62,497 nt of DNA, filler included, from Asterionella formosa (GCA_002256025.1; 18 parts of 18 records of this genome joined end to end with filler, not necessarily neighbours in it); one strand, 5' to 3'; positions 9,189 to 51,958 are shown, counted from the first letter of the whole stretch. A program made the numbers and translations. Notes: a model not told the origin generated them from the sequence alone.

Positions 9189-9232
9189 TTATATAGCAAA
9201 ATAATATGCAGACAAGCGGCAAGAGAAAGTTC

Positions 9233-11597: not shown

Positions 11598-11697
11598 NNN
11601 NNNNNNNNNNNNNNNNNNNNNNNNNNNNNNNNNNNNNNNNNTTAATTAATTAANNNNNNNNNNNNNNNNNNNNNNNNNNNNNNNNNNNNNNNNNNNN

Positions 11698-13546: not shown

Positions 13547-13646
13547 NNNNNNNNNNNNNNNNNNNNNNNNNNNNNNNNNNNNNNNNNNNNTTAATTAATT
13601 AANNNNNNNNNNNNNNNNNNNNNNNNNNNNNNNNNNNNNNNNNNNN

Positions 13647-15494
13647 CTTGGCTGTGCGTCGCAATCAGTATTGCGTGGCTTCAAAACTGGAGGGGCGGAG
13701 GGACAGGCGGAAGTGTGGTACAGTACATTTGTAAGGGGCGTTCTTAATATTGGGCGCGCTCTGAAATTAAAAAATTATTATATCATGTGTATTACCGGTA
13801 TAACACAAATCGTTGTACCCATAACCCCAAAATTTGTGTTTATGTTGACCAAATTTTTTACAGTTATGCATAACAGTGCATTATATAAGAAGATGTTTAG
13901 GCATGAATGACTACATATAATTTCCCATAATATTTCAAGACTTGCTTGCTCATACCCGAAATGGCTTCTTGCTCTTACCAAAAAAACGATGTTGGTATGC
14001 ATATACATATACACATCAATCATCATAAAGGTATCATCAATCCACATCTGCTTCCAGTTTTGTTGTGATCATGTCTTCTTGCTCACAATCCACCTGCAAT
14101 ACAATCTTAGAGGTCGCAGCCATTATTAACTCATGTGCAATGTCTGCACTGATTGATAATTATAAGGCGAAATGAAGAAACAGAGCACATTATATCATTC
14201 TATACATTTGTTTGTTAGCTTTAATGTCACTACATCGTCAACACTGCCATAAACTAAAATACATTTGCTGTGCTTGTAAATGAAGAAATTGTGTTCACCA
14301 CAGACCTTTGCTACTGTAGCATCCTATGTACAATGGCGTCTGCAGCAGGGAACTTATTTTCCAGACAAAAAACAGTCCACTTAATATCTCCGCTGGTACC
14401 TCATGATTGTATCCATCTACAAGCTGCAATACATTTGGATTTGCTGTCACTTCCTCTCGCAGCTGTTGATATTGATTTTCAATGTCATCAAGACTGGATT
14501 GATTTCACCTCCGTCCCCATGGGAATTGATACAATCTTGTTGTCTTGTTTGAAAGTCAGGAATAAGTTGGCGGGCTTGCTGCCAATCGCTCTTGCCTTTG
14601 CTGAAATTGATTTTCAATTTCATCGAAAACTTGATTGATTTCACCTCCATTGCTATGGGGATTGATAAGAACTAGTCGTTGAAAAGCGGGAACAGGTTGG
14701 GCTCAGTCCATAGCATGGGCAAACAAACGATGCAAGTCCCTCTGACTGTCTTCATTTTGGAGTGAAAAGTCGCTCTTGGAGAGCAATACCTCGTTGTGAA
14801 AGTTCTGTTGGCCTGATTTGACGATCAGAGGCTTGTTTCTTGAGAAAAGCTGAAACTTCTATGTTTCTGTCTCTCAGGTTTTAAGTTCACTCATGGCATC
14901 ACCCTTGTCATCAGGAGATGAGAGGTAAGCCGACATGCTGGTCAGTGACTGACATTGGTGAAATTATGGAACTCATGTGGACAGTGAACAAGAGGCCGCA
15001 TAACACACAAGAGGATGCATCGCTATGAAACTATAACTGTTATAAATTAAAGTTAAATTTTTATAAAATGTCAGATGACTAATCTAAAACATCTTGATTA
15101 TCAGAGCGTGACGATGTTATTATGTATCAAATCGCCAAAATAATTTGTGTTATGATACACACATGATATAATAATTTTTTAATATCAGAGCGTGCCCAGT
15201 GGGCGCGCTGCTTCTTCGATATACCAAAGTAATTTGTGACAAAATTATCATATCACAAATATTCCTTCATGATTTGATGTAGTATAATATCGTCGTTGCA
15301 CTGTGAAATTCATATTATTTTAGATTACTTATCTAACATCAAATAAAAATTTAACTGTTATTTTTAACAGTTAAATTTTCATAGCAATGCATCCTCCCAT
15401 TTGTTATGCCTCCTCTTATTCATTTTAAATGTAATAATATCATTGATTTGAGTTGCATAATCTCGCCATCATTGGTCACTGACAATGTTGGCTT
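13647..15494 (+). repeat. Near-identical second version of contig 1-1850 (allele or assembly bubble); TIR element copy at 13752-15197
   Basis: Same first bases (CTTGGCTGTGCG) and last bases (GTTGGCTT) as 1-1850, collinear throughout, with only scattered substitutions and small indels. Confidence 0.95.
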
Positions 15495-15826
15495 NNNNNN
15501 NNNNNNNNNNNNNNNNNNNNNNNNNNNNNNNNNNNNNNTTAATTAATTAANNNNNNNNNNNNNNNNNNNNNNNNNNNNNNNNNNNNNNNNNNNNAAGAAG
15601 ATGACAACAATGAAGGTGTGAGTGAGCATTATGATAGTCAGTTTACAATGATGGGCACTTTGGCATATGAAACTGGAAACAATGGTGTGCTTACCTGGGG
15701 AAGTTTGGAGGCAAATACAAACACAACGAAAACAAACAAGGAGGACATGAGTAGTACAACTATACAACTGTTGGTGGACGGCCCAAAGGTGCCACCATTG
15801 CTGCCACCATTAGCAACAAACCCCAG

Positions 15827-16600
15827 ATGCAAAATGCATTGATTGAAGCAACAGATGAGTACATGAATAAAATGCTAGACAGCAAAAATAACAACAAACG
15901 TACCTCCAAAGGAACAATTTCTTTGATCATTGATGCTGCCAAGGAAAGGAATGGAATACCTGCAAATTCTGCCACACCAAACAAGAAAGCAATTTATGAA
16001 CAAGGATGGTATCCCCTGAACTATAATGTCTTGCTTCACCCTGAGATTCAACTAGTAACCCAACCACGACACAACAGAACATCAATGCGCCCACAGAGAC
16101 TGCCACTCTCCCTCCTGATGAGTTAAACCTCCAAACTGGCTTTTCTGGAACAATTGTTGGAAGAATTAACAAGTTTTGCAAATGCGAGGATGTGCGAAAT
16201 GGAATCGACCGGGACGCCGCCCAAGCTAGTAGACAGAGAAGGGAGACAGCGGATTCACACATTGAGGGACACAAGAAGAGGATAACAGCAGGACTTCTGG
16301 CCTCTGCACAAACCTTTTCCCTTGGGCCAAATATTCTTGCTGTTACACTGGAACGGAAGCGAATTTCAGACATTGTCATTAGTACAAAAGAAACCAAGCA
16401 AAAGGCAACAAGAATTCAATACACTTCGCGGAAAAACACTTACATTAAAAGGGATAGAACAGAACAAAACAAAAGAACAGATGTCTGTGCCAGAATTGAA
16501 ATTAATGGTGCATTGGTACAAACAATCAGGTGATTTGCCGGTTCCACAAACAAGGCAAGCTCTGATTACAAGATTCGACGACACCAATCACCGTGGTGAC
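15827..16600 (+). pseudogene. Internally deleted pogo/Tc5-like (DDE_1) transposon remnant
   Basis: N-terminal segment KRTSKGTISLIIDAAKERNGI is joined directly to KKAIYEQGWYPLNYNVLLHPEI, then LNLQTGF and KRITAGLLAS. These resemble the termini of diatom pogo-like transposases with the DDE core missing. Frameshifted. Confidence 0.5.
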
Positions 16601-17224
16601 CAGCAGCCGCCATTCCCTCTCCATGCACCTCCTATTGCTGTGGTTGTTGTTACTGCACCTCCTCCTGTTGCTATTCCCTCTCCTTCTACAACTGCTACTG
16701 CCGATCCACCATTCCGTGATGAATATGCAATAATCTTAGTGACTTTGGAAAAATTATTTCTTCATGGCTAGATACACTGAATCAAAACTGATTCCTTAAT
16801 AGTATAGCAGAGAGCATTGTCTAACTTAAGCTTTGTACTTGCGTCAAGTTTTGATTGTTGAATTACATAAATATTTTTAGTCGAAAGATAGAGTAAAATA
16901 GCGGTGGCTTACAGTTTTTAAGTGGTACCAGGTACCAGTATATGAACAGGTATTCCGGTCGGCCGGATTCGTCATAACACGATATGAAAGCGCAGGAGGG
17001 TAAGATACGTTTCACAGTTGTCAGTGTAGGAATGAATCCTCACAACTTTATTACCTTTAGCTACCAGGTGTGCTGTACATGTATACCGGTACTTTTGTGA
17101 TGAAGAACTAGACTACGGTAGACAACGGGTACAGGTACAGATATACTATTATTATGTTTCATGAATGAGCCGCAAGACCCGATGAACACAACGGCCGGTA
17201 CCGCTCCGGCGACCAGTGTCACTG

Positions 17225-17226
<2 letters not shown>

Positions 17227-17255
<29 letters not shown>

Positions 17256-17256
17256 C
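17227..17256 (+). repeat. (AAC)10 microsatellite, encoding poly-Asn in a truncated ORF starting at 17161
   Basis: Read directly. Confidence 0.95.
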
Positions 17257-17555
17257 GATATGACTTTACGAAATGTAATTCATCAAGGCTGCAAAAGGAT
17301 TGATCTTGGTGCAGCCGTATTGCCCCAACCTCTCCTCAATGACTCCCAGTACGCAAAAGTCCTTGGCCGTGAAATGAATGCCATTGTTGTGGAACATCAT
17401 TTAAAATGGGGACCACTTTGCCATGATTTACCAGGACCATTGGNNNNNNNNNNNNNNNNNNNNNNNNNNNNNNNNNNNNNNNNNNNNTTAATTAATTAAN
17501 NNNNNNNNNNNNNNNNNNNNNNNNNNNNNNNNNNNNNNNNNNNTTGAATTCAAAG

Positions 17556-17750: not shown

Positions 17751-18002
17751 GCAGGTACCTGGAATGCAAAACGAGCGGCGCGACAAAGATTTTGACCGGT
17801 CATTCCAGGGCAGGCAGTGCTAGAGCGCGCCAGAGTAGGCGCAATATATTTCAACACATGGCTATTGGAAAATAAATTTTATGTTGAATTCAACGCCAGG
17901 TGGTACTACTCAAGAATTTACAAACACGACCACAAAGAAAAAGGCGTTTCAACACACATCCCATAAAACGAAAACAACCTTATCAACAAGAACAAAGCAA
18001 AC

Positions 18003-21000
18003 ATGGCTTCTTTCAGTGGTACATACGCCCCTCGCCATGCTGGAATCACGAACGCTCATGCCGTACAAGATAGGATCGTTAGGAGGGGAATTTATTATTG
18101 TCCTATTCATCCAGACATTCTGCTTCGCAGAATGAATTTGTTTGGAGTTTGGAAAATTGTGCGAGAGAGCTGCCCTAGATGCGATACTCAGCAGCCACCG
18201 CAGCCTCCTTCTTCGCCAGCAACACAAATTCCAACCACTTCAATTCCGTCTAAGATTGCTGAAATTATTTCAAAGATGGAAAGGAATCTGCAGATTAAAA
18301 AAATTCAAGAAGATTGTCTCAAGGAGCTCGGGGCATTGGCTTTGAATGACGAAAACAAGGCGGCGATTCTTGAAGCAGGAGGTATCAATTTGATTCTGTC
18401 TGCCATGAACACTCATTCATCCATTGCAAATGTGCAATACTACGGTTGTGGGCTTTTTTGGGCCTTGGCTGCTGAGAAAGATTACAATGTGGCGACTGCT
18501 GAAACAGGAGTTATCACTACGATTCTGTTTGCGCTGAGGAATCATAAATCCAATGCAATTGTGCAACACTATGGTTGTGCAGCACTTCAACGTTTGGCAG
18601 TGAATGATAAAAACAAGGGGAAGATTGCTGAAGGAGGAGGTATCAATTTGATTGTGTCTGCGATGAAGACTCATCCCTCCAATGCTAAGGTGCAAGAAGA
18701 GGGTTGTGAAACACTTTTTGTCATGTCTTACAATAATGACGAAAACAAGGTGGCCATTGCTGAAGCAGGAGGGATCATTACGACCGTGTCTGCGATGAAT
18801 AATCATGGTGGCAATGTTGAATTGCAATACTTGGGTAGTGGAGTACTTTGGAACTTGGCTGATAATCAGGACAACCAGGTGAAGATTGCTGAAGCAAAAG
18901 GTATCATTACAATTCTGTTTGCTATGAAAAATCATTTCCTCAATTCTCAGGTTCAACACTGTGGTTGTGCAGCACTTTGGAACTTGTCTATGAATGACGA
19001 CAACAAGGTAACGATTGCTGAAGCAGGAGGTATTCCTACGATTGTATCTGCGATGAAGAATCATTCCTCCAATGCTGACGTGCAAGAATATAGTTGTGGA
19101 ACACTTGGGAACTTGGCTTTGAATGACAGCAACAAGGTGGCTATTGTTGAAGCTGGTGGAGTATTAGCAATTGAGTCTGCTATGCAAAAGCACTCATCCA
19201 ATGCTGATGTGCAAGAAAACGCTTATCGAGCACTTTCTATCTTTCAACCAACCTCAACAACAACTCCAAAGCCAAGCAGTAGCAATCCAACTGATCCCAT
19301 TTCCATAGTTCAAAAAACAGAATTGAAAAAATATGTTGAACGAATTAAAGAAAATGATCTAAGTTTGACTACACTTTATCTCGCATCCAAATCAATTGGT
19401 GATGATGGCGCCAAGACCATTGCAGAGACTCTCAAGGTCAATACTGTCTTGACTGCACTTGATCTCGATGGTAATTTAATTGGTGTCGTTGGCGCCAAGG
19501 CCATTGCAGAGACTCTCATGGACAATACTCCCTTGACTACACTTTATCTCAGAGGTAATTTAATTGATGATGAGGGTGCCGAGGCCATTGCAGAGGCTCT
19601 CAATTTAAATACTGGCTTGACTACACTCAATCTCGGAGCTAATTCAATTGGTATTGATGGCGCCAAGGCCATTGCAGAGGCCCTCAAGGTCAATGCTTTC
19701 TTGACTACACTTTATCTAAAAGATAATTCGATTGATGATGATGGCGCCAAGGCCATTGCAGAGGCTCTCAATGTCAATACTGTCTTGACTACACTTTTTC
19801 TTGACAATAATTCAATTGGTGATGATGGCGCCAAGGCTATTGCAGAGGCCCGCAAGGACAATACTGTCTTAACTAGACTTGATCTCTATTACCTACAAGA
19901 TGAGCTTTTCAAAAGTGGATTTTGTCCTTATCATGCAGACATTCAGCTTCGCAAACCGAATTTGTTTGGAGTTTGGAAGATAGTGCAAGAGAGCTGCCCT
20001 AAATGCACCACTTCGCCTCTTGCTGTAATTCTTTCAGAGATGAAAATGAATGAGCAGAATGCTGACATTCAAAAAAGAAGGCTCTTCGAGCTTGCGAAAT
20101 TGGCTTATGCTCATGACAACAACAGGGTGACAATTGCTAAAGCAGGAGGTATTGATATGATTCTGTCTGCTATGAATATTCATTCCTCCAATGCTAATCT
20201 GCAAAACTATGGTTGTGGAGTACTTATGAACTTGGCTGTGAATGAAGACAACAAGGAGGTGATTGTTGAAGCAGGAGGAATTGCTATGATTCTGTCTGCA
20301 ATGGCGACTCATCAGTCCAATGCTAATGTGCAATACAATGGTTGTGGAGCACTTTTGAGTTTGTGTGACAATCATGACAACAACAGGGTGAAGATTGCCG
20401 AAGCAGGAGGTATTGCTATGATTCTGTCTGGGATGAACATACATTCCTCCAATGCTAATGTGCAAGAGTATGGTTGTGGAGTACTTGGGAACTTGGCTGT
20501 GAATGATGACAACAACACGGTGACAATTGCTGAAGCAGGAGGTATCATTACAATTCTGTCTGCGATGGCAACTCATCAGTCCAATGCTGATGTGCAACAC
20601 TATGGTTGTTTTGCACTTAATAACTTGGCTGTGAATGACGACAACAAGGTGGAGATTGCTGAAGCAGAAGGTATTACTACGATTCTGTTTGCTATGACAA
20701 ATCATTCCTCAAATGCTAAAGTGCAACACTATGGTTGTGCAGCTCTTTGGACCTTGGCTGTGAACGACATCAACAAGGTGAATATTGCTGAAGAAAGAGG
20801 TACTGTTATGATTTTATCTGCAATGAAGTATCATTTAGACAATGCTAAAGTGCAACACTATGGTTGTGCAGCACTTCAGAACTTGGCTATGAATGACAAC
20901 AACAAGGTAATGATTGCTGAAACAGGAGGTATTCCTACAATTGTGTCTGCAATGAAGTATCATTCCTCCAATATTAATGTGCAACACTATGGTTGTGCAG

Positions 21001-21302
21001 CACTTGGCACCTTGGCTGTGAATGACAACAACAAGAAGATGATTGCTGTTGCAGGAGGTATTCCTATGATTGTGTCTGCAATGAATTGTCATTTAGACAG
21101 TGCTGATGTACAACACTATGGTTGTGCAGCACTTTGTTGCTTGGCTGAGAATGACATCAACAAGGTGGCAATTGCCAATGCTGGTGGAAAAGGCGCAATT
21201 GAGTCTGCAATAAAGAAACAACCAAACAATGCTAATGTGCAATACTATGGTTGTGCAGCACTTCGCATATTGACCCAACATTGGAAATGGTCATTATGGT
21301 AA
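18003..21302 (+). CDS. 1099-aa modular repeat protein: CxxH-x20-CxxC / 7 ARM / 6 RI-like LRR / CxxH-x20-CxxC / 9 ARM
   Basis: Intronless ORF with 42-aa ARM units (NKVxIAEAGGI..ILSAM..HSSNANVQHYGCxAL), 28-aa LRRs (LTTLYL..NSIGDDGAKAIAEALKVNT) and Cys/His motifs at 18099-18182 and 19923-20006. Confidence 0.92.
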   Translation: MASFSGTYAPRHAGITNAHAVQDRIVRRGIYYCPIHPDILLRRMNLFGVWKIVRESCPRCDTQQPPQPPSSPATQIPTTSIPSKIAEIISKMERNLQIKKIQEDCLKELGALALNDENKAAILEAGGINLILSAMNTHSSIANVQYYGCGLFWALAAEKDYNVATAETGVITTILFALRNHKSNAIVQHYGCAALQRLAVNDKNKGKIAEGGGINLIVSAMKTHPSNAKVQEEGCETLFVMSYNNDENKVAIAEAGGIITTVSAMNNHGGNVELQYLGSGVLWNLADNQDNQVKIAEAKGIITILFAMKNHFLNSQVQHCGCAALWNLSMNDDNKVTIAEAGGIPTIVSAMKNHSSNADVQEYSCGTLGNLALNDSNKVAIVEAGGVLAIESAMQKHSSNADVQENAYRALSIFQPTSTTTPKPSSSNPTDPISIVQKTELKKYVERIKENDLSLTTLYLASKSIGDDGAKTIAETLKVNTVLTALDLDGNLIGVVGAKAIAETLMDNTPLTTLYLRGNLIDDEGAEAIAEALNLNTGLTTLNLGANSIGIDGAKAIAEALKVNAFLTTLYLKDNSIDDDGAKAIAEALNVNTVLTTLFLDNNSIGDDGAKAIAEARKDNTVLTRLDLYYLQDELFKSGFCPYHADIQLRKPNLFGVWKIVQESCPKCTTSPLAVILSEMKMNEQNADIQKRRLFELAKLAYAHDNNRVTIAKAGGIDMILSAMNIHSSNANLQNYGCGVLMNLAVNEDNKEVIVEAGGIAMILSAMATHQSNANVQYNGCGALLSLCDNHDNNRVKIAEAGGIAMILSGMNIHSSNANVQEYGCGVLGNLAVNDDNNTVTIAEAGGIITILSAMATHQSNADVQHYGCFALNNLAVNDDNKVEIAEAEGITTILFAMTNHSSNAKVQHYGCAALWTLAVNDINKVNIAEERGTVMILSAMKYHLDNAKVQHYGCAALQNLAMNDNNKVMIAETGGIPTIVSAMKYHSSNINVQHYGCAALGTLAVNDNNKKMIAVAGGIPMIVSAMNCHLDSADVQHYGCAALCCLAENDINKVAIANAGGKGAIESAIKKQPNNANVQYYGCAALRILTQHWKWSLW

Positions 21303-21846: not shown

Positions 21847-22867
21847 AATTAGTATTTATCATTGTAATTACAAAACTGTTATATTTTGATTATCAAATAC
21901 TGTACTTTTTGTTTCACTTCGACTTGGAATTTACATTTATGCCCTTCTTTATTGATTTTTTCCTGATTGATACATTTGCATTGCAGGAATGCTTATGTTC
22001 ATCAGTTTTCATTGGTTCATGATCGAATTGCGAAGCTGAATGTCTATGTGATAAGGACAGATTCCGTTCCTAATGAGCTCAACGTGTATGGCATGCTCAT
22101 TCAAATTGGAGCATCATCGTGGGTAGGGGCGAATGCACCACTGATACTTGTTGCCATGTTTCTTTATTCTTGCTGATTTGGTTGTTTTATTGAATGTGTA
22201 ATGAAACGCCTTTTTCTTTGTTGTGTTCATGTTTGTAAACTCTTGAGTACTAGAATTCTACATGCAAGCTCCAAATCATTGCTTTCTCTCCTGTCATGAC
22301 GCCATAACTTTTGTCCATCATATAGCAGAAAGTTTGTATTCACTACATTTTATGCTGCCGGTATATCAGTAAAGTAAGATAGTGATGATGAAAGGGCTTT
22401 TGTATATTATACGGAACAATTTTGCTTGTTACACGAATATTTATGAATAAATATATTGCAGAAGCAATGCATCTTTTAGGAAAACGTTTCATGACTGATG
22501 AGGACATTTTGATAAATTACGATCTATTTTACTTTTTATTCAGCACACACCGGTATCAGTACAACAGGCACATTTTTTGGAAATATACCGGTGGTACCTG
22601 GAAGGTCCGGTAGGGCACATTCTATGGCTGCGCACCTTTCAGTTTCGACGCACTCCCAAGAGATTATCTTATGCCTGCTGTACGCGATAGACTGGCATTT
22701 AATTTCAAGTTCTCTTTACGTAGCTAGGTTCCTGCATTTGAAACCCTAACTTGAGCTACGGTTAAAATAATAAAATTATGTCAGAGTAGTTTTAAAACTT
22801 AAATGTATATCGCTAAATGGAGCTTTCACCAATACACACCCTTTCCATATGCTTAGATACACTATTC

Positions 22868-23262
22868 TTCTAAACTTCATGAAGCAATGCGCCATCGTTG
22901 CCTACTTCAATTTTCGTTTTCAATATTAGTACAATTACATAGCGTCATTTTCATTTTCAATGGAGAAGTTTGTTATCTTCGACATGGTCAAGGCAGAGAT
23001 GGCATGATGCAGGAACTACACTATAGCATTTTATATACAGAATGAAATCGCAACATTTAGGCTAAATAATTACATACTAGCTTCTCTAAGGGCTACCTCG
23101 GGTACCAGGTACCCTCAAAATAATTATCCGATGTATGTAGCACAAGTATACATGTGATAAGTGATACTATGAACGATATTGCAAATACAGTAGTATAGAT
23201 AGCGGTACTCCTACCCCGCTAGATTGTTGTTTGCATCTGGAATGATAATGACTGTGACCATG
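22868..23262 (+). repeat. Host repeat (family H) interrupted by the Copia; resumes at 30081-~30100
   Basis: Collinear with 51285-51958, which lacks the Copia but carries a solo LTR. Confidence 0.85.
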
Positions 23263-23648
23263 AGTTGAAACAGACAAGTCAAATGAATCTTGTTTGTGTC
23301 TCTAAATTAGTCCAATCATGACTTTTTTGGGTCTATACATGAAGATGAGTCAATCTTTACTCATACATGAATCAATCTTTGAATCTTGTCATGAACATGA
23401 GTCGATTTACTCATATATGTCTTAGTTTTGTTTGTTTGGTTTGCAAAAAGTTAATTCTATAAGCTCCCTTTATTTGGAAATACCAATAGAGTCAGATCTA
23501 TCCTAGCTACAACATTCTCCTAAATTCACCATGATTCTTTGATCCACTGCCTAGCACCTACGTTGCTGAGTATATATATCGAGATATATATACTATTCTT
23601 CAATAAGTCGAACTCCTTTCAGGTTAATCTACGACTTCTCTTTCAAGT
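23263..23648 (+). repeat. 5' LTR (386 bp, AGTTGAAA...TTTCAAGT)
   Basis: Direct repeat of 29697-30080. Confidence 0.95.
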
Positions 23649-23660
23649 GGTTATGAGCCC
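23649..23660 (+). promoter_or_regulatory. Primer-binding site GGTTATGAGCCC (half-tRNA-iMet type, as in Ty5/copia)
   Basis: Abuts the 5' LTR and is complementary to the anticodon stem-loop of initiator tRNA-Met. Confidence 0.9.
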
Positions 23661-23799
23661 AAGACGCTTATATCTGCGCATTCTTCAGTTGGTTTCTCCT
23701 GCTCCTTTGTTCCCAGAGCCATTTTCTAAAACCAGTTCATTTTCTTGTCCCAGTGAAAGTGTCAAACTTCTTTCAGCAAACTTCTTTGCATATTCTTTC

Positions 23800-24008
23800 A
23801 TTGTTACCCAGTATTGCCCCTTGAGACAATTGCCTGGTCCTTTTTTCTTCTCTCTTTCTTCTTTCAGCAAGCTTCATTGCAATTTCTTTTATTGTTACCC
23901 AGCATTGCCCCTTGAGAAGACAATCGCCCGGTCCTTTTTTTAATCTCTCTTTCTTTTCTTTATTACCCAGTATTGCCCACTGAGACAATTGCCTGGCCTA
24001 TTTTTTTT
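23800..24008 (+). repeat. Three imperfect ~48-bp direct repeats with pyrimidine spacers in the Copia 5' leader
   Basis: TTACCCAGTATTGCCCCTTGAGACAATTGCCTGGTCCTTTTTT at ~23804, ~23895 and ~23963. Confidence 0.85.
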
Positions 24009-24075
24009 ACTTTTCTTCACTCTCTTCTTTTATCACTGCTTTCTTATCTTTCCCATACACTCCCACTTCCTTGCA

Positions 24076-27000
24076 ATGTCAGTATTCACTACTATTACTA
24101 CTATTCTACCTACCAAGTTTGGCCAAGTGACCACTGGTACTGCTGTCAAACGGTACTCTGGTGGTCAACTGAATGATGACTTTACTATCACCAAGAAACC
24201 AATGTGGTCTCCTTACCAGATCCGTTCAGATGATTCCAGGGACATCAAGACTGCATTTGAGTCACTCAAAAACGTGAAAAGGTATACAATGGCCCCAATG
24301 GTGACCCTATCAACAATCTCACTCTTGCTTAGCTCTGCACTCTTATTTACAAGCAATGATGCAGAGACTGGCAGTGTGGACACTTTCCTCTATGCCCCTG
24401 ACAGTTCTGGTAAAGTTTGGTGTATGACCAGACACCATAAACGAAATATGTTGATCATTTTATTGGTCTTGAGACATTCACACCAGACATTGACACTAAA
24501 ACTGGAAATCCCACACCTGATTCTCTCACCAAGTCACATCAGATCTTTGATGATCAGGCATTGGATGATTCTTCCCACCTCTGGCATCTGATTGTATCCT
24601 ACATTTCCCCAAACCTCTTAACAGGTCTCCTTGAACGTCTCGAAGATTATGGTAATCGTGGTCCAGGCCTCCTCCTCTGGATGGCCTTAATGGATGAAGT
24701 CACCTCTGGTTCACCTCAGGCAATGGATAGCATCTTGGAAAATTTAAAGAAGATCCAACTTTCTGATTACTCTGGCGAAAATGTCCGCCTCATGGTCCAT
24801 GATATTCAAGCTTCATTTAACCTACTAAAGAGTGGACAGTGTCTTCCTATCACTGCCTCCAGCATTGTTGCTACCCAGCTCCTACCCTGTCAAGTTGAGG
24901 AATTTCGTGCTGTCTTCTATACAATCTCTGTCAAGATTGATACTGAAGAGCGGGGTCTCATGGGTAAAGATAATGCTGTCCTTGTCAAATTCCAAGCTAC
25001 ACCAAGTGGTGTCAAGACACTTCTTGATATGGCCCTCACTCAGTACAAACGTCTCATTGACAATGAACGATGGCCACCTTCCCAAACTGTTCCCAAGAAG
25101 CAGTCAGATTCCCTACCAGATGCATTCCAGGCTACAGTTTTTCCTACTGCTTCTTTTCAAGCCCTGCCTTGCTGATGAACTTAAAGCCCTCTGCAAAGAT
25201 TTTGAGACCAAGCCTAGTGGGGCTGGCCAAGACCTCTCTTAAACTACTTGCTACAAGTGTGGCAAAATTGGTCATCTTCGTCCTAACTGTCCTGACAAGA
25301 CAACCACTTACCCTGAGAACTCTTGGCAAAATGTTCCTCCTACTGATGGAAAATTTTCTATGACCAAAGATGGTCGCCAGTGGCATTGGTGCAACAAATG
25401 CCGTGGTGGGGAAGGGTGTTGGTCTACTACTCATGGCACTGAGACTCACAAAGGGAGTCCCAAAACTGTTACCTTTACTGCTGTTGCCAACCTAGCTGGA
25501 GTTGCCGAAGAGTCTCCAGCAGAAGATGGTGTTTTGATGTACAATCCTGCTGGTTTTGTTGCTTCTTGCTATGACCATGATTTCGATTGGTCTTCAATTG
25601 AACCTCCTGACTTAACTCATCATCATCTTTCCCTTGAGAAAGATGAATTTTTTCAGTTTGGCTTTGGCATCCATTCCAATAGTGTTGTCAATCCAATGTC
25701 TCCATCTTACTTGAACTTACACTTTCACCACTCCTCTCTTGTTGCCTCCTCAGCCTCCTACTGCCCACTGTTTGTGCTCCCACTCTGAATCAATGACACA
25801 TTATGACTGCCCAAGTGTCTTCCTCATCAATGAAGGACCTTCCTTGGCATTCCTGGATTCCAATGACATCACTAGACGTTTTTCTGTCATCTGGGACACT
25901 GGTGCCACTCGTCCTGTCAGTGGGTTCACTGGTGACTTTATTGGCCCAATGATTATTCCCTCTACTCCTTTGTTACTTGGAGGCATCGCCTCTGGTCTGG
26001 TTGTTGAAGGAATTGGAACCGTCAAATGGTCTTTCTATTCTGATAATGGCACCCTCCTTACTCTTCATTTAAAGGCCTTTTATGTCCCTACCTGCAAACA
26101 ACGCTTGCTTTCTCCCCAGAAAATCTTTTGTCCTACTGAAAATGTCCGTTGTACTTTTGTGATCTCTTCAGCACATGCCCAAATCTTACTTGATGACTCC
26201 CCCATTCTCACTGTTCCCTATGACCCAATGAATGGGCTACCAACCAGCCAAGCTATCCTCCTACATCATGGCGCGTCTTCCCCTCAAGTTAACTTGTGTG
26301 TCACAGAGGAGGTAAACCAAAATCTCACAGAGGCTCAAAAGGAATATCTTCGTTGGCATTTTCGTCTTGGACATCTTAATTCTAATATTATTTAATGGCT
26401 TCTTCGTCAACCTTCTTTTGGCAACAGTCATAAGGTCCGTGCTGCTGCCCGTTGCACTCCACCCAAATGTGCAGCTTGTGAATATGGCAAGGCCCATCGT
26501 CGTCCTCTTGCATCTACCCTCTCTACACCATCACCTGAGAGGGAGGGAGCTACAAAATTTGATGATTTATTCCCAGGTTCAGGTGTCTCAGTGGATCATT
26601 TTGAATCAAAGGTGCCGGGTCGTTTATATACCTCAAAAGGTAAATCACAACTTGCCTCAACTTATAAAGGCGGTTGTATTTTTGTTGACCATGCATCTGG
26701 ACTACTTTATGTCCGTCATCAAATCAGCTTTACTTCAGAAGAGACCATTCATTCGAAAATGCATTTCGAAAATTGGGCATACAATCAAGGTGTCTTAGTT
26801 CAAAAATATACTACTGATAATGGCATTTTTGGCGCTCGCGAATTTAACAGTGAAATTTCTGCCAAAGGTCAAATTGTGAAATATTGTGGGGTTGGAGCTC
26901 ATCATCAAAATGGTACTGCTGAACGTAGCATTCGTACAGTCTCAAACATGGCTAGAGTAATGATGCTCCATGCCTCCCTACGATGGCCAGAAACTGCCGA

Positions 27001-29670
27001 TGCTTCCCTCTGGCCCATGGCTGTTGACTATGCTGTCCATGTATACAACCATGTGCCAAACCCTAAATCTGGTCAAACCCCCCTTGATATTTTCACAAGT
27101 ACCATTGTGCCTCGTCATGGAATAAAAGATTTTCATGTCTGGGGTTGCCCTTGTTATGTACTGGACCCCACTTAACAGAATGGTCATAAACTCCCTCGTT
27201 GGCAACCTAAATCTCGTCATGCGATCTTTATGGAAATCTCTCCTTCTCATAGTAGCAATGTCCCCCTATTACTGAACCTAAAAACAGGTAGCATATCACC
27301 TCAGTTTCACGTGGTTTTTGATGACTACTTTACCACTGTTATGTCCATCTCTGATTCTGATGATCCTCCAGGTCACCGGGAAAATTTATTTCATGAATCC
27401 CGGTTTCATACTGAATTTGATGAACACGAACAAGTTTCCTTACATGGTGATTGGTTAACTTCCAGTGAACAAAATGACTTTCAACATCACAAACAGATGC
27501 AAGCAAAAATCTTACCTCGTATGAATATACCTAAGGATGAATTGCCAACAAATAAGAGGGAGTTTCCTCTGGTTCCCCTGCCTACTGTGGTGGCTCCTTC
27601 AGCCCATAAAGAGCCTGCTGTTAGTACATCTACCTCTGGCTCTGCTGTGGTTGTTCAGAGCCCTCCCCCTACTACCTATATCCACCCAGTTGATGTTCAG
27701 GATATTCCTATGGCTGCTCATTCTACTGAACCAGCAGCAATTCCTGGCCATGATCTGCCCACTATTTCTACCTCAAATTTACAGGTACCTCCAACTCCAC
27801 CTGTTCACACAACTTCTATTAGCATGAAATCAACTGCAATTTCTACACCTCGCCGTAGTACCAGGACAAACTTCGGTGTGTTTGGTACTCGTTATGTCCC
27901 TGAAGGCCACCTTGCCCATGCTTTCTTCTCCCAATTGGTTGAAGAAAGTGACACCCATGGCTTTGACTCTGATTTGGCCTACCTGGCTGCTGTTATGACA
28001 GATCCAATAACAGGTCTCTTGGAGTGTTCTAACCCACTTGTCTATGCTGCAATGGCTCGTCGAAATGACCCAGATAATCCTAGATACCATGAAGCCATGG
28101 CTAGCATTGATCATGAATCTTTTAAAGCTGCGATGGTCACCGAGATTGTTGCTCTTACACCAAAGAAAACCTGGACTTTAGTGACACATCAATCAGTTCA
28201 GGGTAAAAATATCTTACCTGGCATTTGGGCTTTCAAATGTAAGTTGTTTCCAGATGGCAGCTTACGTAAATGCAAGGCTCGGTTTTGTGTACGTGGTGAT
28301 CTGCAAGTTGAAGGAGTGGACTTCTTTGAGACAGATGCTCCGGTTGTCCCATGGTCCACTGCTCGTGCTTGCTTTACTGGTGAGGTCCATTGTGTTAAAC
28401 CTTGCGACTCAGCAAATCGATTTCATTAATGCCTTCTGTCAAGCGGACATTGATGAAGAGGTATATGTTGAAATGCCCAAAGATTTTGGTGATCCCAGGG
28501 GGAGAGACATGGTACTACTTCGGTTAAATAAATCATTGTATGGAACAAAACAGGCACCTAGGACTTGGTTCCTAAAATTGAAGGAATGTCTCGAGCAACG
28601 GGGTTTCACACAGTCATTGTTAGACCCAAGCCTCTTTATTCAAGCTGACATGGTCTACCTGGTATATGTGGATGATTCGATTCTTATTGGGCGTGATAGA
28701 ACCAAGATTGATGCTATGATTGAAAATTCGGCTATTGACCTAGAATTGAATCGAAAGGGAGTTCTAGCTGCTTTTCTGGGCATCCAAATTAACAAATCAA
28801 CTGAAAACGGTTCACTTAAACTTACGCAAGAGGGTATGATTAAGCGTGTTCTGCAAGCTACTGGCCTCGAAGACTGTCGGGCTAGCTCTACTCCAGCCAA
28901 TAAGGAGACTCTAGGAACAGATAAGGATGGTCTGCCTACAAGTGAAGCATGGAACTACCGGTCTATGGTGGGGATGCTACTTTACTTGGCCTGTAATTCT
29001 CGTCTTGACATTGCTTTTGCTGTTCATCAGTGTGCTCGCTTTTCTCATTGTCCTCGTGCTACTCATGAAATAGCAGTAAAGAAAATTTGTCGGTATCCTA
29101 AAGGCAGTTTTGATCAAGGAATTATTATTACTCCTACTCGTCCTGATGCCTTTGACATTGAATGTTTTTGTGACAGTGACTTTGTTGGGCTCTTTGGTTC
29201 AGAAGAAAATACTGATCCAGTCTGTTCTTGCTCTCGAACTGGCTATGTCATAACCCTTGCTGGATGTCCCCTCCTCTGGGTGTCCAAATTACAAACTACC
29301 ACTGCACTATCTACAATGGAAGCAGAATATCAGGCTCTTTCTGCCAGTTGTCGGGACCTCAGTCCTCTCCGTCATATCATTCAAGATGCATCTACAGCCC
29401 TACACATGATTGGTAAAGGTTCAGCTGTTCGATCTTTTTCAAAGGTCTACGAAGATAATAGTGCATGCCTGTCCCAAGCTACTATGCCAAAGATGACTCC
29501 TCGTACTAAGCACATTGCTGTAGCTAGCTTATCATTGGTTTTGTGAATATGTCCTTTCCGGAGTTCTTTAAATTGTCGAGGTGGCTACTGCAGCTCACCT
29601 TGCTGATATCTTTACAAAAGGTCTTGTGGCTGACAAATTCACAGCTATACGCAAGCAGTTATGTGGTTGA
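24076..29670 (+). pseudogene. Copia gag-pol with several frameshifts and stops
   Basis: Gag: CYKCGKIGHLRPNC knuckle (~25248) and WHWCNKC...WSTTHGTETH. Protease: WDTGAT. Integrase: WHFRLGH/CAAC, SVDH, TDNG, QNGTAER. RT: KARFCVRGD, KSLYGTKQAPR, YVDD. RNase H: CDSDF, STMEAEY, YEDN, RTKHI, ADIFTK. Confidence 0.93.
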
Positions 29671-29687
29671 TGACTGTTTGCTCTGCT

Positions 29688-29696
29688 GAGGGGGAG
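29688..29696 (+). promoter_or_regulatory. Polypurine tract GAGGGGGAG
   Basis: Immediately precedes the 3' LTR. Confidence 0.9.
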
Positions 29697-30080
29697 AGTT
29701 GAAACAGACAAGTCAAATGAATCTTGTTTGTGTCTCTAAATTAGTCCAGTCATGACTTTTTTGGGTCCATACATGAAGATGAGTCAATCTTTACTCATAC
29801 ATGAATCAATCTTTGAATCTTGTCATAACATGAGTCGATTTACTCATATATGTCTTAGTTTTGTTTGTTTGGTTTGCAAAAAGTTAATTCTATAAGCTCC
29901 CTTTATTTGGAAAACCAATAGAGTCAGATCTATCATAGCTACAACATTCTCCTAAATTCACCATGATCCTTTGATCCACTGCCTAGCACCTACATTGCTG
30001 AGTATATATATCGAGATATATTTACTATTCTTCAATAAGTCGAACTCCTTTCAGGTTAATCTATGACTTCTCTTTCAAGT
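29697..30080 (+). repeat. 3' LTR (384 bp)
   Basis: Direct repeat of 23263-23648. Confidence 0.95.
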
Positions 30081-30989
30081 CCATGTATATAGATATGATG
30101 TCCAAAGCACCATTGCAAATTATCATTTGTCCACTGAACATGATTTCATGTTATTTCAACCAGAAGATGAGGATAGCGGATGGCAAAACCAGACTATGGA
30201 TATTGATGACTTTATTAGGTGGGCGTTCACGCTTTATCGTTTTGCGCAGTCAAAGTGCATTGACAGGGGAAGCCAAGGATACCAAGTCTGGCGTGATGTT
30301 CTTGCTCCAGTGTATTTTATAGGCAGGACAAGCCGTGGAGAACCATTTCTAATAGGAGACAAATCTGGTGTGACCAAGCCAAATTTCAACTCAGTCTTCG
30401 GGCACAGTGTGAATTGCAATCACGTTTTGTTGGTTCACTGATCAATGCCAGTACAGAAGCATTTTGCTTCTTGGTTCTGAACGGAAGATTTCGATTGCAA
30501 CAAAAATATTTGGTTTTCAATCCAGATACCCAAGAAATTTCAGAGAACGATATTCGTCATTCTACTGATTTTGTCGACATTGGTGGGAAACCACTTATCA
30601 AAAGAAGTGTGAGGGAAGAAAGTTCAGTTTCAAATGGTCTCACTGATCAATGGACTGATGATTTACTCGTTTTTTATAAGGAAATCTACACTGGACTTTC
30701 ACAAAAGAATCGATCTGAATATGGAAGGAATCCTAGTAGTGGAATTGCTACTTCCACCACAAATATCATCTACCCACACTCATACTTCTCATTTCCCAAT
30801 GTAAGTGAAGAGGATATGCATCAATAGGTTCAAGCACTTAAACCAAAGGTTCCTCAGAAGAATATTGACTACAGTGACCGCATTAATCAACAGGACATTG
30901 ACGACAACATTGATTTTGAATTGATCTAATAGAAATTCAATGCATATTTAGTTAAATAATAAAAATAGTTAGTAACAACACTTATCCCT

Positions 30990-34058: not shown

Positions 34059-35768
34059 CTAGGGAAGGAAAGTAGGTCTTGATGCAGGTAGATCAATGAA
34101 TACTTTCTTAGAAATAGGGTATTAGTACAAGCAAATGGGTTATGAAAAAGATTATCATGAACATTCAGTAGTAGTAAACAAATGGCAGTGCTCCTTTCCT
34201 TCTTTTCATGTTTTTGTAGCCTCAGCATTCAGTAGTAGTAAACAACTGGTTGTGCTCCTTTCCATTCTTGTCATTATTTTTCAAGTCAAGTTTGGAATGT
34301 CCACTAGTATTAACAAATGATGGGGCCGGGTCCTTGGGGTGTCATGACAGCAATGGCGATGCTGATGATGTTGATGCTGTTGATTGACAATGTGCCAGTC
34401 AATCATTTCATAAGAATGTTGTTTCTTCTAGCATCATATGCTACCGATAGTCTTCAAAATATATACAGGGGTTGAAGGCGAAGTTCTGAAATAGGTCTGT
34501 CATCTATTTATGCATACATAGCTATGCTGTTTCAATCAATTGCGTTTTCGTGGAGGCTGGGGTTGCTCGCTAATATGAATATTATGACATTCAAATGGAG
34601 AACATCATTTACAATTTGCTGGTGTGCCTAATTGAACTATATGAAATGTTTTCATGGAAAACACTACAACCACCCATGCAATGAGTTGAAACACGAGAGG
34701 AACAACCTGGCAGATGTGAAGTTGAAGTTGAGGCAGTAGTGATCGATATGCAAGGTCAAAACAATTTCTTGAAGAATATACTTGTGTTAGTATGATATGC
34801 TCTCACTTAAAAACTGGGTACCAGTAATTTTAATATCAAAAAGTATTAAATAATAATTTTCGTGGTATAAGCATATTCAAGTAAAATAAAACAAGGTTTG
34901 GAGGTAAAAATCTTCATGAAGAATAGATGAAAAATATGTACTAATTAACAAAGTTATGGGTTATGATAGGTGCCATAAAATGGCTTAGCTAGATCTCCAT
35001 AATTGTATGTTCTTCTTTAGAACTGATTATATGATAGCTATTCTGTTTCTATTGACTGCAGTAAAGTTTGTATTTGCTTCAAATTTTATCATTTAAGTGA
35101 TGTTGATAATTGAGTTGAAAGATGGGGTGATCAAATGTTGGCTCTCAGTTTCAGATTAAACTGAGTACACTTGCTTGTCAGCTATCCTTCTGATTTCATA
35201 GCTACACAAATTTATATTCTTTCCTAAGAAACACGTGAGAAAGACTTAAAATCTACCGGTACGTATAATGAAAGATGCTACAGTACTAATAAGAACATGC
35301 AGTAAATCAAGTACCGGTATTCCTTTTGTCGCCAGCATGCATCGTCAGAAAAGATTCTTGCAAGCTGGTATACTGGTAGGCGAATGTGAATCTTGATGGC
35401 TGACGTACGAGCCTTCTGGCATTCGATGTCTGTACTTGGTACCAGGGACCAGGTACTGAGACCACTACCTGGTACCATGTATAAGGTACTATGATACCTC
35501 CGGTTCAAGCAGAGCATGGACATAAAGTATATCCATGACGTAATTTTATTCCGGTATGATTTATGACATGTATGCACACAATTCTTATTCTCTTACTTAT
35601 ATTAGCACGATCAGGTATACATATAATTGTGGTTTGCCCGACAGCAGTAAATAAAAGATCGAAATAAATGTATAGAACTTCGCTCATATTCTCACATTTT
35701 GCTACATTATTTGATATTCCATGCCCGAAATCTAAATACCTCCAACACATCACTAAACAGTTTGCATA

Positions 35769-36797
35769 ATGACAAGAAGGTGCCTGTCCATCGGGGCTTT
35801 TTCTCGTAACTTCTTCCTTCTTTGGACTTTTCTATGGTGTCGCCTTGTTGCTCCTGCATTTGTTCCTTTAGCTCAGCACCGGTCAAGTTTCAAACAACCG
35901 ACTTCCTTCTCATTATTCATGGAGATGGATCCTACACTAGCTTCCCTTATCGCTGGCTCAGTGGCTGGATCCATTGGCGTTGGCGTTGCTTTCCCTTTAG
36001 ATACTGTGAAAACCAAAGCTCAAGTTTTGACTCAACAAGTAGCTCAGCAAGGGGCACTTGACGAAGGAACATATAACGTCAATGCCAACATGTTTGATTT
36101 ATTCAAGCTCATTTACCATCGAGAAGGATTGAATGGATTTTTTGGAGGCGTCTGGGGTATGATGGTTGGTCAGTCGCCTATTTATGCCACTGTATTTGCG
36201 TCCAAGACAGCAGCAATTCAAACCTTGAATGAATACGCAGAATATCTTCCGTCTATCGTGACCTTGACGCTGGCCGCCTGCTACGCTGGATTCATAGCTA
36301 CTTTTGTTGTTGTTCCTGTCGAACGTGTCAAAGTCCTTATGCAAACATCTTCAGAGTATAAGAATGAATGGGAATGTGTGCAGGCTATCCTTAATTCCGA
36401 GGGTTTGACAGGACTGTTTCGACGTGGGCTTGGAATTACTTTACTTCGTGAAGTCCCTGGTTATGGGATTTACTTTGTTGTGTATGATGTTATGATGCAG
36501 ACTTGGGGTTCATCTTTGGGTGTTGTAGCCCCACTTGTCTTTGGGGCCATAGCGGGCATGTTGAGTTGGGTTCCTGTCTATCCTTTTGATGTTGTGAAGA
36601 CGACTATTCAAAACACAAGTGGAGAGGATACCCAGACAACCTGGGAAATTTCGAAGCAAATTTATCAAACCAGTGGTATAGGAGGATTTTTTGATGGCTT
36701 GACACCGAAAATGCTACGAGCAAGTGTCAGCAATGCAACTATCTTTTTTGTTTACGGATTCATCCTGGAGCAATGGGGCTATATGCCAGAATACTAG
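35769..36797 (+). CDS. Mitochondrial carrier family (SLC25; carnitine/basic amino acid carrier-like) protein with bipartite plastid-type presequence
   Basis: Three Px[D/E]xxK signatures (PLDTVK, PVERVK, PFDVVK), REVPGYGIYF and RASVSNA. The N-terminal hydrophobic stretch is followed by VAPA-FVP and an S/F/K-rich transit-like region. Confidence 0.92.
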   Translation: MTRRCLSIGAFSRNFFLLWTFLWCRLVAPAFVPLAQHRSSFKQPTSFSLFMEMDPTLASLIAGSVAGSIGVGVAFPLDTVKTKAQVLTQQVAQQGALDEGTYNVNANMFDLFKLIYHREGLNGFFGGVWGMMVGQSPIYATVFASKTAAIQTLNEYAEYLPSIVTLTLAACYAGFIATFVVVPVERVKVLMQTSSEYKNEWECVQAILNSEGLTGLFRRGLGITLLREVPGYGIYFVVYDVMMQTWGSSLGVVAPLVFGAIAGMLSWVPVYPFDVVKTTIQNTSGEDTQTTWEISKQIYQTSGIGGFFDGLTPKMLRASVSNATIFFVYGFILEQWGYMPEY

Positions 36798-40037: not shown

Positions 40038-41547
40038 ATGGTGATCGTATTATTACGTCTCGCCCTCCTAATCTCTGTTCATGTCGTCATTGCTGGCACA
40101 CCACGGCCAGCGCAATACTTTGACAACCAGTTGGTCGACCACGATGATAATGCCGCTATTCAGTTTTGGTCCCAGCGCTTTTATTCGTTTGGGGACTATT
40201 TTGGTGGCCCTGGCCATGCGATTTTCCTGGTCATGGGCGGCGAAGGCAACGTTGAACCCTCCACTGGGATTTTCTATCCATTCGTTACAGATCATCTGGC
40301 TAAGGAATTCGGTGCGTTTGTACTAGAAGCTGAACACCGATTCTACGGAGAGTCTCTACCGATCTATGATTTCCGTGAGCAGCAACCAGATCCAAGAATC
40401 AAGTTGCTTACGCCTAACAAGCGCTGCAAGATAACATGAGATTGCTGAGATACACTCAGGCAAAGCTAGGGTGCTCCTTCGACAGAGCATCTCCAAAATA
40501 TTGCCCTGTCATTACAGTCGGCGGAAGTTATCCAGGCTGGCTGTCGGCAATGGCAGGCTTGTCTTTCCTGACGTTGTGGATATGGCGTATTCAGCCTCGG
40601 CTCCCATGAAGTTCTACTCTCAGCAAGTTCAGCAGGAAGAGTATTACAATCATATCAGTAATGTGGCGGAAATGGCTCACAAGGGATGTTTTCAGGCGGT
40701 ACGACGCACATTACAGGTACTGAATGAACTTTTGGATGAGCTCACATTGGCGGCTGACCGTGAAACCATTGCCGACATGCTAGGGTTTTGCCCCCAAACC
40801 TTGCCCCAATACATGTTGAAGTCTCATGAAAATTTTAGCAATGAAGTTTTCATGATGATTGGATACACATTTGCCAACTTGAACATGGCCAATTACCCTC
40901 CATCGAACAATACAGGATTGTATAGAGCATGCACTATCTTTATGAATCCTGATACAAATACCACTGTCAAGGTGCATGACTTTTTTCAGTCGTTTCTTCC
41001 CAAAGACCCCACAGATTGCATCAATACCCGATCGCAACTGCCCTCGGGAATGCATGCAACTATTAGTGGAGGAGACTGGAGTGGCGTCGGTGACGGATTG
41101 TCGGGAGAGAGTTGGGATTTTCAAACATGCACGTTGTTAGTGGAAGCGATTGGTTTTTCCAACGGTTCCATGTTTCCTCCAAGAGAATGGAATTTGGAAT
41201 GGATGAATCAGCATTGTATCACAAGGTTTGGAGTTGTTCCGGAGCCATACAAGTTGGCAAACGAATGGGGATTTGATGATTTGCTTAAGGTAAATGCGTC
41301 TCGTATACTCTTTACGAACGGTTTGAAGGATGGTTGGTCTGTGGGAGGAATTAAAGAGAATATCTCTGAAAGTTTGTTGGTAATAAATTTTGAAAATGGG
41401 GCCCATCATTCTGACTTGACAGGAAATGGACCATCTCCAACAGATACAGACGATATTAAGGCAGGCTTTGAAAGCATTAAAAGCATTCTAGGAACTTGGC
41501 TTAATGAAGTTCAGTCCAGGCGTGAAGTTATGATTAAGAAACGTTAA
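40038..41547 (+). pseudogene. Serine peptidase S28 (PRCP/DPP7-like) with signal peptide and two 1-nt deletions (pseudogene or assembly error)
   Basis: WSQRF, MGGEG, AEHRFYGES; frameshift at ~40416; QALQD...PVITVGGSYPG in a third frame; frameshift at ~40555; then AYSASAP, WDFQTCT, NGLKDGW and AHHSDL. Confidence 0.85.
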
Positions 41548-43164: not shown

Positions 43165-43568
43165 GGGGCACGATGGAATCGATGGCTGACAGGGGGAGAG
43201 GATAAACACCTTAATGATGATTTATGCATAAAAAGTCAAAATTGAACAAGACCATCATTTGCTATGTAGTATTTTGTGTACTGTATACTGTATACCATTC
43301 GAAATAGTACCATGTGTGCATACAGTACCAGTAACATTTTATGGATGTCAGAGTTTGTCTGTTAGGCTGGTTGACGTCGACTGGTGTCCGAACGCTAAGC
43401 AAATGTAGGCAGGCTGAGGAATGATGTCTGAACAGAAGTACCAGGTACCGGTAACCGGCAGTCTTCCGGTACCAGGTAGTACATTTCACAAAAGTATCAT
43501 TGTTGTCTTGAGAGCAAAAAATGATGTATATTTGATGTCCTTTGAAGGCCATTTCTGATAACCAATGC

Positions 43569-51284: not shown

Positions 51285-51958
51285 ATCTAAACTACGTGAA
51301 GCAATGCGCCATCAGCGAATTTTATATTGGTTGTCAATATTAGTGTTATTACAAATATTTTTTATGATTGTATTATCTATGTTGTGTTAGATATATTTAC
51401 CAGATAGGTTAGCGTCGTTTTCATTTTCCATGGAAAATTTCGTTGTTTTCGACATGATCAAGGCGGACGAGATGGCATAATGCTGGATTCTCCAGTCGCG
51501 CACAAGAACTACACTCTAGCGTTTTATATACAGAAATAAATCGCAACATATGAGCTAAATAATTATAAACTTGCTTCTATATGGGCTACCTTGGGTACCA
51601 GGTGAGCGATCTTGCACATCAATACAGATGTATATAGGGTTAGTGTTATATCATATATATCCAAACTCAATAATGAGAGAACTCAACTAACCCTTTATGT
51701 ATACTTTGGTGTAGACTTAGAGAACGAGTTGCACACAGGGATTAACTAATAAGCTCGTATATTCAACAAATACTACTACTTCTAGTTAGATACTTCACCA
51801 GGTAGCTACCCTGAAAGTATATACTGGTATCCTATGTAGCCATAGTACATATGTGATTCGTGATAAATATATGATATTGCAAATAGTATAGCGGTACCCC
51901 GTTAGGCTGTGGCATCTGGAGTGATAATGACTGTGACCATGTATATAGATATGATGTT
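51285..51958 (+). repeat. Host repeat family H, second copy, carrying a solo LTR
   Basis: Collinear with 22868-23262 plus 30081-30100. Confidence 0.85.
51603..51797 (+). mobile_element. Solo LTR of family B with 5-bp TSD CCAGG
   Basis: TGAGCGATC...GATACTTCA, flanked by CCAGG at 51598-51602 and 51798-51802. The empty site GGTACCAGGTACC is at 23101-23113 in the other host copy. Confidence 0.9.

Follow-up and report, generated by a model that had tools for sequence, protein, structure and literature searches.

The long terminal repeats (LTRs) of Ty1/Copia retrotransposons typically, though not as a strictly defining trait, have TG at their start and CA at their finish, and a copy that departs from this pattern raises the question of where its true ends lie and of how such ends would be made and joined to host DNA. 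One such copy is found in a 62,497-nucleotide stretch of DNA from Asterionella formosa (GCA_002256025.1), hereafter called the window, in which direct reading of the junctions and alignment of the two LTRs give the ends AG...GT instead of TG...CA. We consider that this is most probably a degenerate copy of a multi-copy, CoDi-like Ty1/Copia element, which would rely on half-tRNA priming (tRNA, transfer RNA) and insert a blunt, untrimmed complementary DNA (cDNA), and that its ends result from a swap of the outermost base pair shared by a whole clade. The features that carry this reading are given below in window coordinates; the contigs of other runs mentioned there and throughout are Logan assembled contigs from four runs (X1, X2, X3 and X13), not raw reads.

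23258..23262, plus strand: left copy of the target-site duplication (TSD), CCATG, repeated at 30081-30085 and present once, at 51937-51941, in an uninterrupted copy of the host repeat.
23263..23648, plus strand: 5' LTR, 386 nucleotides (nt), AGTTGAAACAG...CTCTTTCAAGT, defined by LTR comparison; one X13 contig exits right after 23648.
23649..23667, plus strand: primer binding site (PBS) GGTTATGAGCCCAAGACGC, adjoining the 5' LTR; the same motif adjoins the LTR end in relatives.
29688..29696, plus strand: polypurine tract (PPT) GAGGGGGAG, directly before the 3' LTR.
29697..30080, plus strand: 3' LTR, 384 nt, AGTTGAAACAG...CTCTTTCAAGT, defined by LTR comparison; six X3 contigs exit after 30080 into differing sequence.
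30081..30085, plus strand: right copy of the TSD, CCATG, read directly.
51935..51956, plus strand: uninterrupted paralogous insertion site GACCATGTATATAGATATGATG, a single exact match at 51935, on a separate small contig.

At the left junction ...GACTGTGA-CCATG (23258-23262) is followed by AGTTGAAACAG from 23263, and at the right junction ...CTCTTTCAAGT, which ends at 30080, is followed by CCATG (30081-30085) and TATATAGATATGATG. The LTRs, of 386 versus 384 nt, are 97.7% identical (BLAST), and when both are aligned with 40-nt flanks (MAFFT) their similarity spans AGTTGAAA through TTTCAAGT. The inner boundaries proposed in a first-pass annotation of the window agree with these limits, as GGTTATGAGCCCAAGACGC follows the 5' LTR at once and GAGGGGGAG comes at once before the 3' LTR; this copy thus has two LTRs, a PBS behind the 5' LTR, a PPT ahead of the 3' LTR, and a TSD that is short. 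The AG...GT ends claimed by the same annotation are also borne out by contigs of other runs, and the tabulation of further insertions that it had called for gives seven contigs outside the window copy (six of X3 and one of X13) that leave the LTR right after ...CAAGT (30080 and 23648) and run into sequences unrelated to the window and mutually different. At the left LTR end no loose end was noted among the 24 listed of 643. Ends other than TG...CA, flanked by a TSD and seen in more than one insertion, define a non-TGCA element, and this is what is found here: the CCATG duplication, the seven further ...CAAGT contigs and a CAACT/flank junction in the relative L002 (described below).

The uninterrupted copies of the host repeat read GACCATG-TATATAG. 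Among contigs of other runs, two of X13 cross from the left flank beyond 23262 directly into TATATAGATAT, and one of X1 connects 23256 with 30082, all three being empty repeat copies. Within the window, the 20-nt CCATGTATATAGATATGATG, made of the TSD and 15 nt of flank, is identical at 30081 and 51937, the match extending one more base and then stopping. The first-pass annotation had taken the site at 51935-51956 as the empty site which fixes a 5-bp TSD and the exact ends. CCATG does stand on both sides of the element, with an ambiguity of one base that is taken up below. The uninterrupted site, however, is a paralogue and not an allele of the filled site: it belongs to another contig, of 1.8 kb, and to the left its identity with the flank of the element is only 72-76%. 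The possibility that AGT is itself a duplication of 3 bp, with a TG...CA element inside it, was rejected, since each of the four LTR boundaries shows AGT whereas the empty sites lack it; the right end ACT of the relatives L002 and L006 counters it as well. In the flanking DNA (22700-22963 and 30092-30600) the summed contig depth is 10-40 times that of the element interior in all four runs, these depths being sums over contigs that we do not take as copy numbers. The element is inserted in a very high-copy host repeat.

A survey of relatives places these ends in a broader context. Scanning metagenome contigs with an alignment of the reverse transcriptase (RT) gave 80 loci (L001-L080), and thus 81 elements with that of the window. 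Among the 120 best RT matches the closest are 72% identical, and the sole organism name is that of the diatom Fragilaria crotonensis, at 47% identity; the runs that carry the element are freshwater and algae metagenomes, and a scan of viral contigs with the RT gave no relative. Many of the loci are collapsed assemblies, with RT, PPT, LTR, PBS and gag on one contig. Several (L009, L016, L018, L032, L053, L074 and others) are contigs of 6-7.6 kb with identical stretches of 99-132 nt at both tips, which are the two LTRs merged into a cycle by the assembler.

Across this group the PPT GAGAGGGAG or a close variant stands ahead of the LTR in 64 of the 81 elements, and the PBS GGTTATGAGCCC or a close variant follows it, both signals being far better conserved than the LTRs between them; L071 and L002 have a PBS with a one-base insertion, GGTTATTGAGCCC. 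Two canonical relatives indicate where integrated LTRs start with respect to the PPT. In L035, for which both flanks are available, a 5-bp TSD (CTTGA) surrounds an element with the boundaries GGGAG/TGTCG and CAACA/GGTTAT, and L007 shows flank/TGTTG together with GGGAG/TGTTG; since the integrated starts of both lie there, the LTR is taken to begin right after GGGAG in the whole group. Anchored in this way on the PPT, 45 elements start with TG (36 of them with TGT), one with TA and 18 with AG, the remaining 17 giving no assignment. Anchored on the PBS, the LTR of 27 elements ends with CA in 18 cases, TA in three (L019, L038, L040), GT in four (the window, L071, L004, L018) and CT in two (L002, L006). 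The PBS matches of L020, L063 and L036 were left out of this count (three mismatches, and implausible LTR lengths in L020 and L063), as was the match from the 3' LTR of L035, for which the 5' LTR reading was used. Besides the type found in the window, the relatives comprise two other non-canonical types, TG...TA (L019, L038, L040) and AG...CA (L058); in the latter AGCAATGAT compares with TGGAACGAT, the reverse complement of the right tip, at 6 of 10 positions in register.

Ten loci carry AGT directly after the PPT (the window, L012, L001, L071, L002, L003, L004, L005, L006 and L018), and these represent at least five families. The eight that are long enough for phylogenetic analysis form one clade in a quick IQ-TREE reconstruction of 79 RT rows, with a Shimodaira-Hasegawa-like approximate likelihood ratio test (SH-aLRT) value of 90, and the grouping of the window with L001-L003 has a support of 100. 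All six members of the clade with a readable right end finish with A(G/C)T, and no element outside it ends with T. L012, which belongs to the same family as the window copy (91% nucleotide identity), keeps GAGGGGGAG/AGTTGAAACAGACAA. The tips of the window LTR, AGTTGAAAC...CTTTCAAGT, compare with AGTTAAATA...CTTTCAAGT in L071, AGTCGCGACT...CTCGACT in L006, AGTTGGAG...CTTTAAGT in L018 and AGTCACG...ATTTAAGT in L004. Set between their signals, the ends read GAGAGGGAG/AGTTAAAT...CTTTCAAGT/GGTTATTGAGCCC in L071/L001, GAGAGGGAG/AGTTGAAACA in L003, and GAGAGGGAG/AGTTGAAACA...CCAACT/GGTTATTGAGCCC in the 5' LTR of L002, whose 3' LTR leaves into its flank as ...CCAACT/TCTTACGAGG. The LTRs of the clade families, which are relatives at 67-73% amino acid identity, give no BLAST alignment with each other and still keep these ends. 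Conserved tips on diverged LTRs are expected of integrase attachment sites, and this indicates that the ends are a heritable, selected trait of the lineage. The first-pass annotation had indeed regarded the non-canonical ends as a lineage trait, a view that the survey sustains, since AGT...A(G/C)T is kept across the clade and the bases that adjoin the PPT and PBS are also those that adjoin the TSD. Grouping all 16 AG-start rows of the tree into one clade is rejected by the approximately unbiased test (p-AU 5e-59). Elements that begin with AG but do not belong to the AGT clade thus reflect either independent origins or a PPT whose end was misread.

How the AGT ends relate to TG...CA was judged from the same anchors. 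Between PPT and PBS no length difference is found from the clade to its canonical relatives, and TG and CA occupy in the latter the positions that AG and (G/C)T occupy in the former, while the third base T and the third-from-last A are retained (TGT...ACA versus AGT...A(C/G)T). The simplest account is that the outermost base pair was swapped at both ends, with an additional change from C to G at the second-last right base in some families. The first-pass annotation had proposed a different account, in which the functional end is TG...CA (TGAAAC...TTTCA), the conserved CA lies 3 nt inside each terminus, and three templated outer nt (AGT on one side, AGT or ACT on the other) are carried by the cDNA and not removed by the integrase. 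In its favour are the TG found at positions 4-5 in the window, L002 and L003 and the CA at positions -5/-4 in the window, L071 and L002. However, the 3-nt difference in length that it implies is missing, and so are the inner motifs in sister families: there is no TG at positions 4-5 in L071/L001 (which start AGTTAAAT), L004/L005 (AGTCACG) or L006 (AGTCGCG), and no CA at -5/-4 in L006 (CGACT), L004 or L018 (TTTAAGT). Also, position 3 is T in 36 of the 45 TG-type starts and in all ten loci of the clade, as expected if a single base of TGT had changed, and the nearest TG-type branches in the RT tree start with TGT. The TG and CA at the inner positions belong to a widespread tip of the TGTTG...CAACA type, and we regard three extra bases as an improbable explanation of these ends.

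The exact start of the LTR leaves room for one more parsing, in which it begins one base earlier (GAGTTG...CAAGT) and the TSD has 4 bp (CCAT). A G does precede both LTRs (23262 and 29696), so that this start fits the window copy alone equally well, the empty site GACCATGTATATAG is compatible with both parsings, and a 4-bp duplication, TTCC, is described for the diatom element Blackbeard (PMC2806351). The start at A is preferred for two reasons: it brings the tips into an in-register inverted repeat (AGTTGAAA with ACTTGAAA; AGTTG/CAACT in L002; AGTCG/CGACT in L006), and the canonical L035 and L007 have integrated LTRs whose first base directly follows GGGAG, with a TSD of 5 bp in L035. The start at G is thus left with a slight chance. 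A misassembly, or a chance direct repeat taken for LTR ends, might also be suspected in a window of concatenated contigs where the flanks are high-copy repeats. The element is nevertheless contained in a single 29.4-kb contig (17544-46964), with a complete set of parts: a pair of LTRs of about 385 nt each, the PBS and PPT, the genes of a Copia element and a TSD of 5 bp. Its ends are also found again in metagenome contigs of independent origin and in those from other studies, and an artefact of this kind is extremely improbable.

Several points weigh against the swap of the outermost base pair and should be set beside the evidence in its favour. The distant relatives L048 and L064 start with TGAAAC, the inner sequence of the window LTR, directly after the PPT, and L048 ends with TTTCA directly before the PBS (the right end of L064 is not on its contig), which agrees with the account of three added outer nt. 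The only integrated left junction of an AGT-type element that is seen is that of the window itself, where the preceding G leaves the alternative of a 4-bp TSD; in the collapsed metagenome contigs the LTR starts are read from the PPT and not from flanks. No listed contig spans either junction of the window copy, and the evidence from public runs consists of assembled contigs. The SH-aLRT value of the AGT clade comes from a quick tree without bootstrap. Finally, three points are what we infer from the sequence: that the cDNA ends are blunt, that a T-3'OH is joined by the integrase of the element itself, and which tRNA serves as primer.

The PBS of the window starts with GGTTATG and not with TGG, and its complement, TTGGG-CTCATAA-CC, places CAT in an anticodon-loop shape after GGG, which seems to fit a half-tRNA (anticodon stem-loop) as primer; this primer would be part of a Met tRNA, putatively the initiator tRNA cleaved within its anticodon stem, the situation of Drosophila copia. 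A search with ARAGORN detected no tRNA either in the window or among the 80 loci and so gave no host tRNA to compare with the PBS, and an Rfam scan of the whole window gave no family. Hemiviruses are described as priming with a short internal tRNA segment rather than with the tRNA 3' end in the profile of the International Committee on Taxonomy of Viruses (PMC8515867). In the proposed mechanism, the first strand would likewise be primed by a tRNA fragment paired to GGTTATGAGCCCAAG, in a hemivirus-type half-tRNA priming, and the second strand would be primed from the polypurine tract GAGGGGGAG that adjoins the unique 3' region of the LTR (U3), the PBS adjoining the unique 5' region (U5). Since PPT and PBS adjoin the LTR, and since the integrated ends are those defined by these signals in both the window and L035, the cDNA is likely blunt, with exact LTR ends. 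The integrase would then join both 3' ends untrimmed, with a 5-bp stagger, at ...AAGT-3' on the right and ...AACT-3' on the left, so that in the clade the joined strand would end in T-3'OH instead of A-3'OH. The first-pass annotation had suggested that this lineage joins unprocessed cDNA ends. That nothing is trimmed agrees with our results, whereas the idea that this is special to the lineage does not, as the canonical L035 behaves in the same way (PPT/TGTCG...CAACA/PBS, TSD CTTGA). Untrimmed joining would rather be a property of the whole group, in which the lineage seems to differ in the base that carries the 3'-OH.

Between PBS and PPT the element comprises the following features.

23767..24018, plus strand: three imperfect direct repeats of 54-60 nt, spaced 91 and 68 nt start-to-start, in the leader between PBS and gag.
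24441..25785, plus strand: gag, in two frames (24441-25172 and 25243-25785), the second part with a CCHC zinc knuckle (PF00098, E 4e-5).
25715..26392, plus strand: protease region with VIWDTGATR, ending at the in-frame TAA 26393-26395.
26396..27172, plus strand: integrase, with the CX2C of a zinc-binding motif and the core residues D (VSVDHF), D (TTDNG) and E (AERS), ending at the in-frame TAA 27173-27175.
28185..29670, plus strand: reverse transcriptase and RNase H, with YVDD, a frameshift near 29530 and the pol stop TGA at 29668-29670.

The order of pol is that of Copia elements, protease (DTG, 25715-26392), integrase (26396-27172), RT (YVDD, 28185-29543) and RNase H, and it is collinear with that of the full-length relatives P0001 and P0002; the RT is of Copia type (PF07727 RVT_2, E 1.4e-28, 100.6 bits versus a cut-off of 31.6). 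Clearly, the window copy is dead, as there are three frame changes between gag and RT, one more near the end of pol, and in-frame TAA codons at 26393 and 27173. The T at 26393 reads C in most contigs of X1, X2, X3 and X13, which indicates that this stop is missing in other copies of the family.

The window integrase is 74-76% identical to those of L001-L003 and gave no Pfam rve match at E 0.01; its catalytic D, D and E are intact, and the helix after the catalytic Glu (AERSIRTV) has no feature specific to the clade. In a comparison of the integrases of 35 loci, four alignment columns distinguish six integrases of the AGT clade from 21 of TG type. The most suggestive of these lies two positions ahead of the second catalytic Asp (Y-x-x-D-N-G), where all 21 TG-type integrases have H or R, all six of the clade have T, M or Q, and L058, the separately placed AG...CA element, has Q. 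As it comes from one clade and one extra lineage, this co-variation with the end type is a lead and not evidence. A re-tooled integrase in the clade is possible. It is rather unlikely, though not negligibly so, that the attachment sites of the clade shifted at each end from ...CA-3' to ...(C/G)T-3' and that the region of the integrase active site changed along with them. Since TG...TA, AG...CA, AG...CT and AG...GT all occur among the relatives, the integrases of the group seem instead to tolerate changes in the final one or two positions, without having been specially re-tooled. Neither the integrase nor an integrase profile of 19 rows gave a match in searches of PDB sequences.

The 29.4-kb contig that contains the element also holds ordinary eukaryotic genes at 17967-21302, 35757-36797, 40435-41547 and 43536-45590, which correspond to an ARM/LRR repeat protein, a mitochondrial carrier, a peptidase S28 and a DUF4209 protein. 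The remainder of the window consists of small unrelated contigs chained around it: 17 linkers of the form N44-TTAATTAATTAA-N44 occur about 1.94-1.95 kb apart in 1851-17543 and 46965-60657, without forming a tandem array. The linkers at 1851 and 15495 are preceded by the same 40 nt, and some of the small contigs may therefore be duplicates.

These ends are of interest because no cis signal of retroviral-type integration is more conserved than the terminal CA, and a clade that transposes with T-3' ends shows the flexibility of this rule. The group offers matched natural pairs, AGT...ACT/AGT versus TGT...ACA with the same PPT and PBS, for asking what the integrase reads, and if the ends and the integrase have truly changed together it would constitute a natural experiment on the reading of the terminal dinucleotide by retroviral-type integrases. 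The LTR_retriever preprint describes a list of plant non-canonical motifs (10.1101/137141), which AG...(G/C)T ends would be expected to fail. In practice, such elements of diatom and other algal genomes would be lost or wrongly trimmed by LTR finders and filters that require TG...CA or accept only a set list of plant motifs.

Among known systems, Ty1 of yeast integrates with the cDNA ends defined by PPT and PBS, no 3' trimming being needed; its primer is the initiator tRNA, used at the 3' end, and its termini are TG...CA. The untrimmed ends are thus alike, whereas the priming site and the TG...CA ends are unlike those of the window. Drosophila copia, in turn, ends in TGTTG...CAACA. The window element differs from this hemivirus by its AGT...A(G/C)T ends and by its host, an alga of diatom type, and shares with hemivirus-type Ty1/Copia elements (Drosophila copia; Hemivirus, Pseudoviridae) the gene order, the 5-bp TSD and a PPT and PBS adjoining the LTR. 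As given in the profile cited above, the PBS of these elements pairs with a short internal tRNA segment (PMC8515867), which is what we propose for the window. Within diatoms, Maumus et al. (2009, PMC2806351) report that the TG/CA repeat is missing in three of 26 CoDi families, CoDi3.2, CoDi4.2 and CoDi4.3; these are diatom Copia elements without TG/CA like that of the window, but the main text of that report gives no end sequences.

Non-TG/CA ends of Copia elements are thus already known, and a limited literature search found no report of AG...(G/C)T LTR ends; the new part is the symmetric A...T variant, shared by a diatom-type clade. In plants, Copia elements with clean TSDs and non-TG/CA ends are described for Tos17 (TG..GA), TARE1 (TA..CA) and AcCOPIA1 (TG..TA), and the TGTT and AACA subfamilies of Rosaceae comprise LTRs whose 3' base is T (TG..TT) and others whose first base is A (AA..CA) (PMC5659011). 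Seven non-canonical types in plants are listed in the LTR_retriever preprint, which notes that no base but the first T is invariable there (10.1101/137141). With the exception of AtRE1 (TA...TA, in the same preprint), the plant examples given in these sources depart from TG...CA at one end only, whereas in the AGT clade both outermost bases are swapped symmetrically to A...T, so that the first T described there as invariable in plants is precisely the base that has changed.

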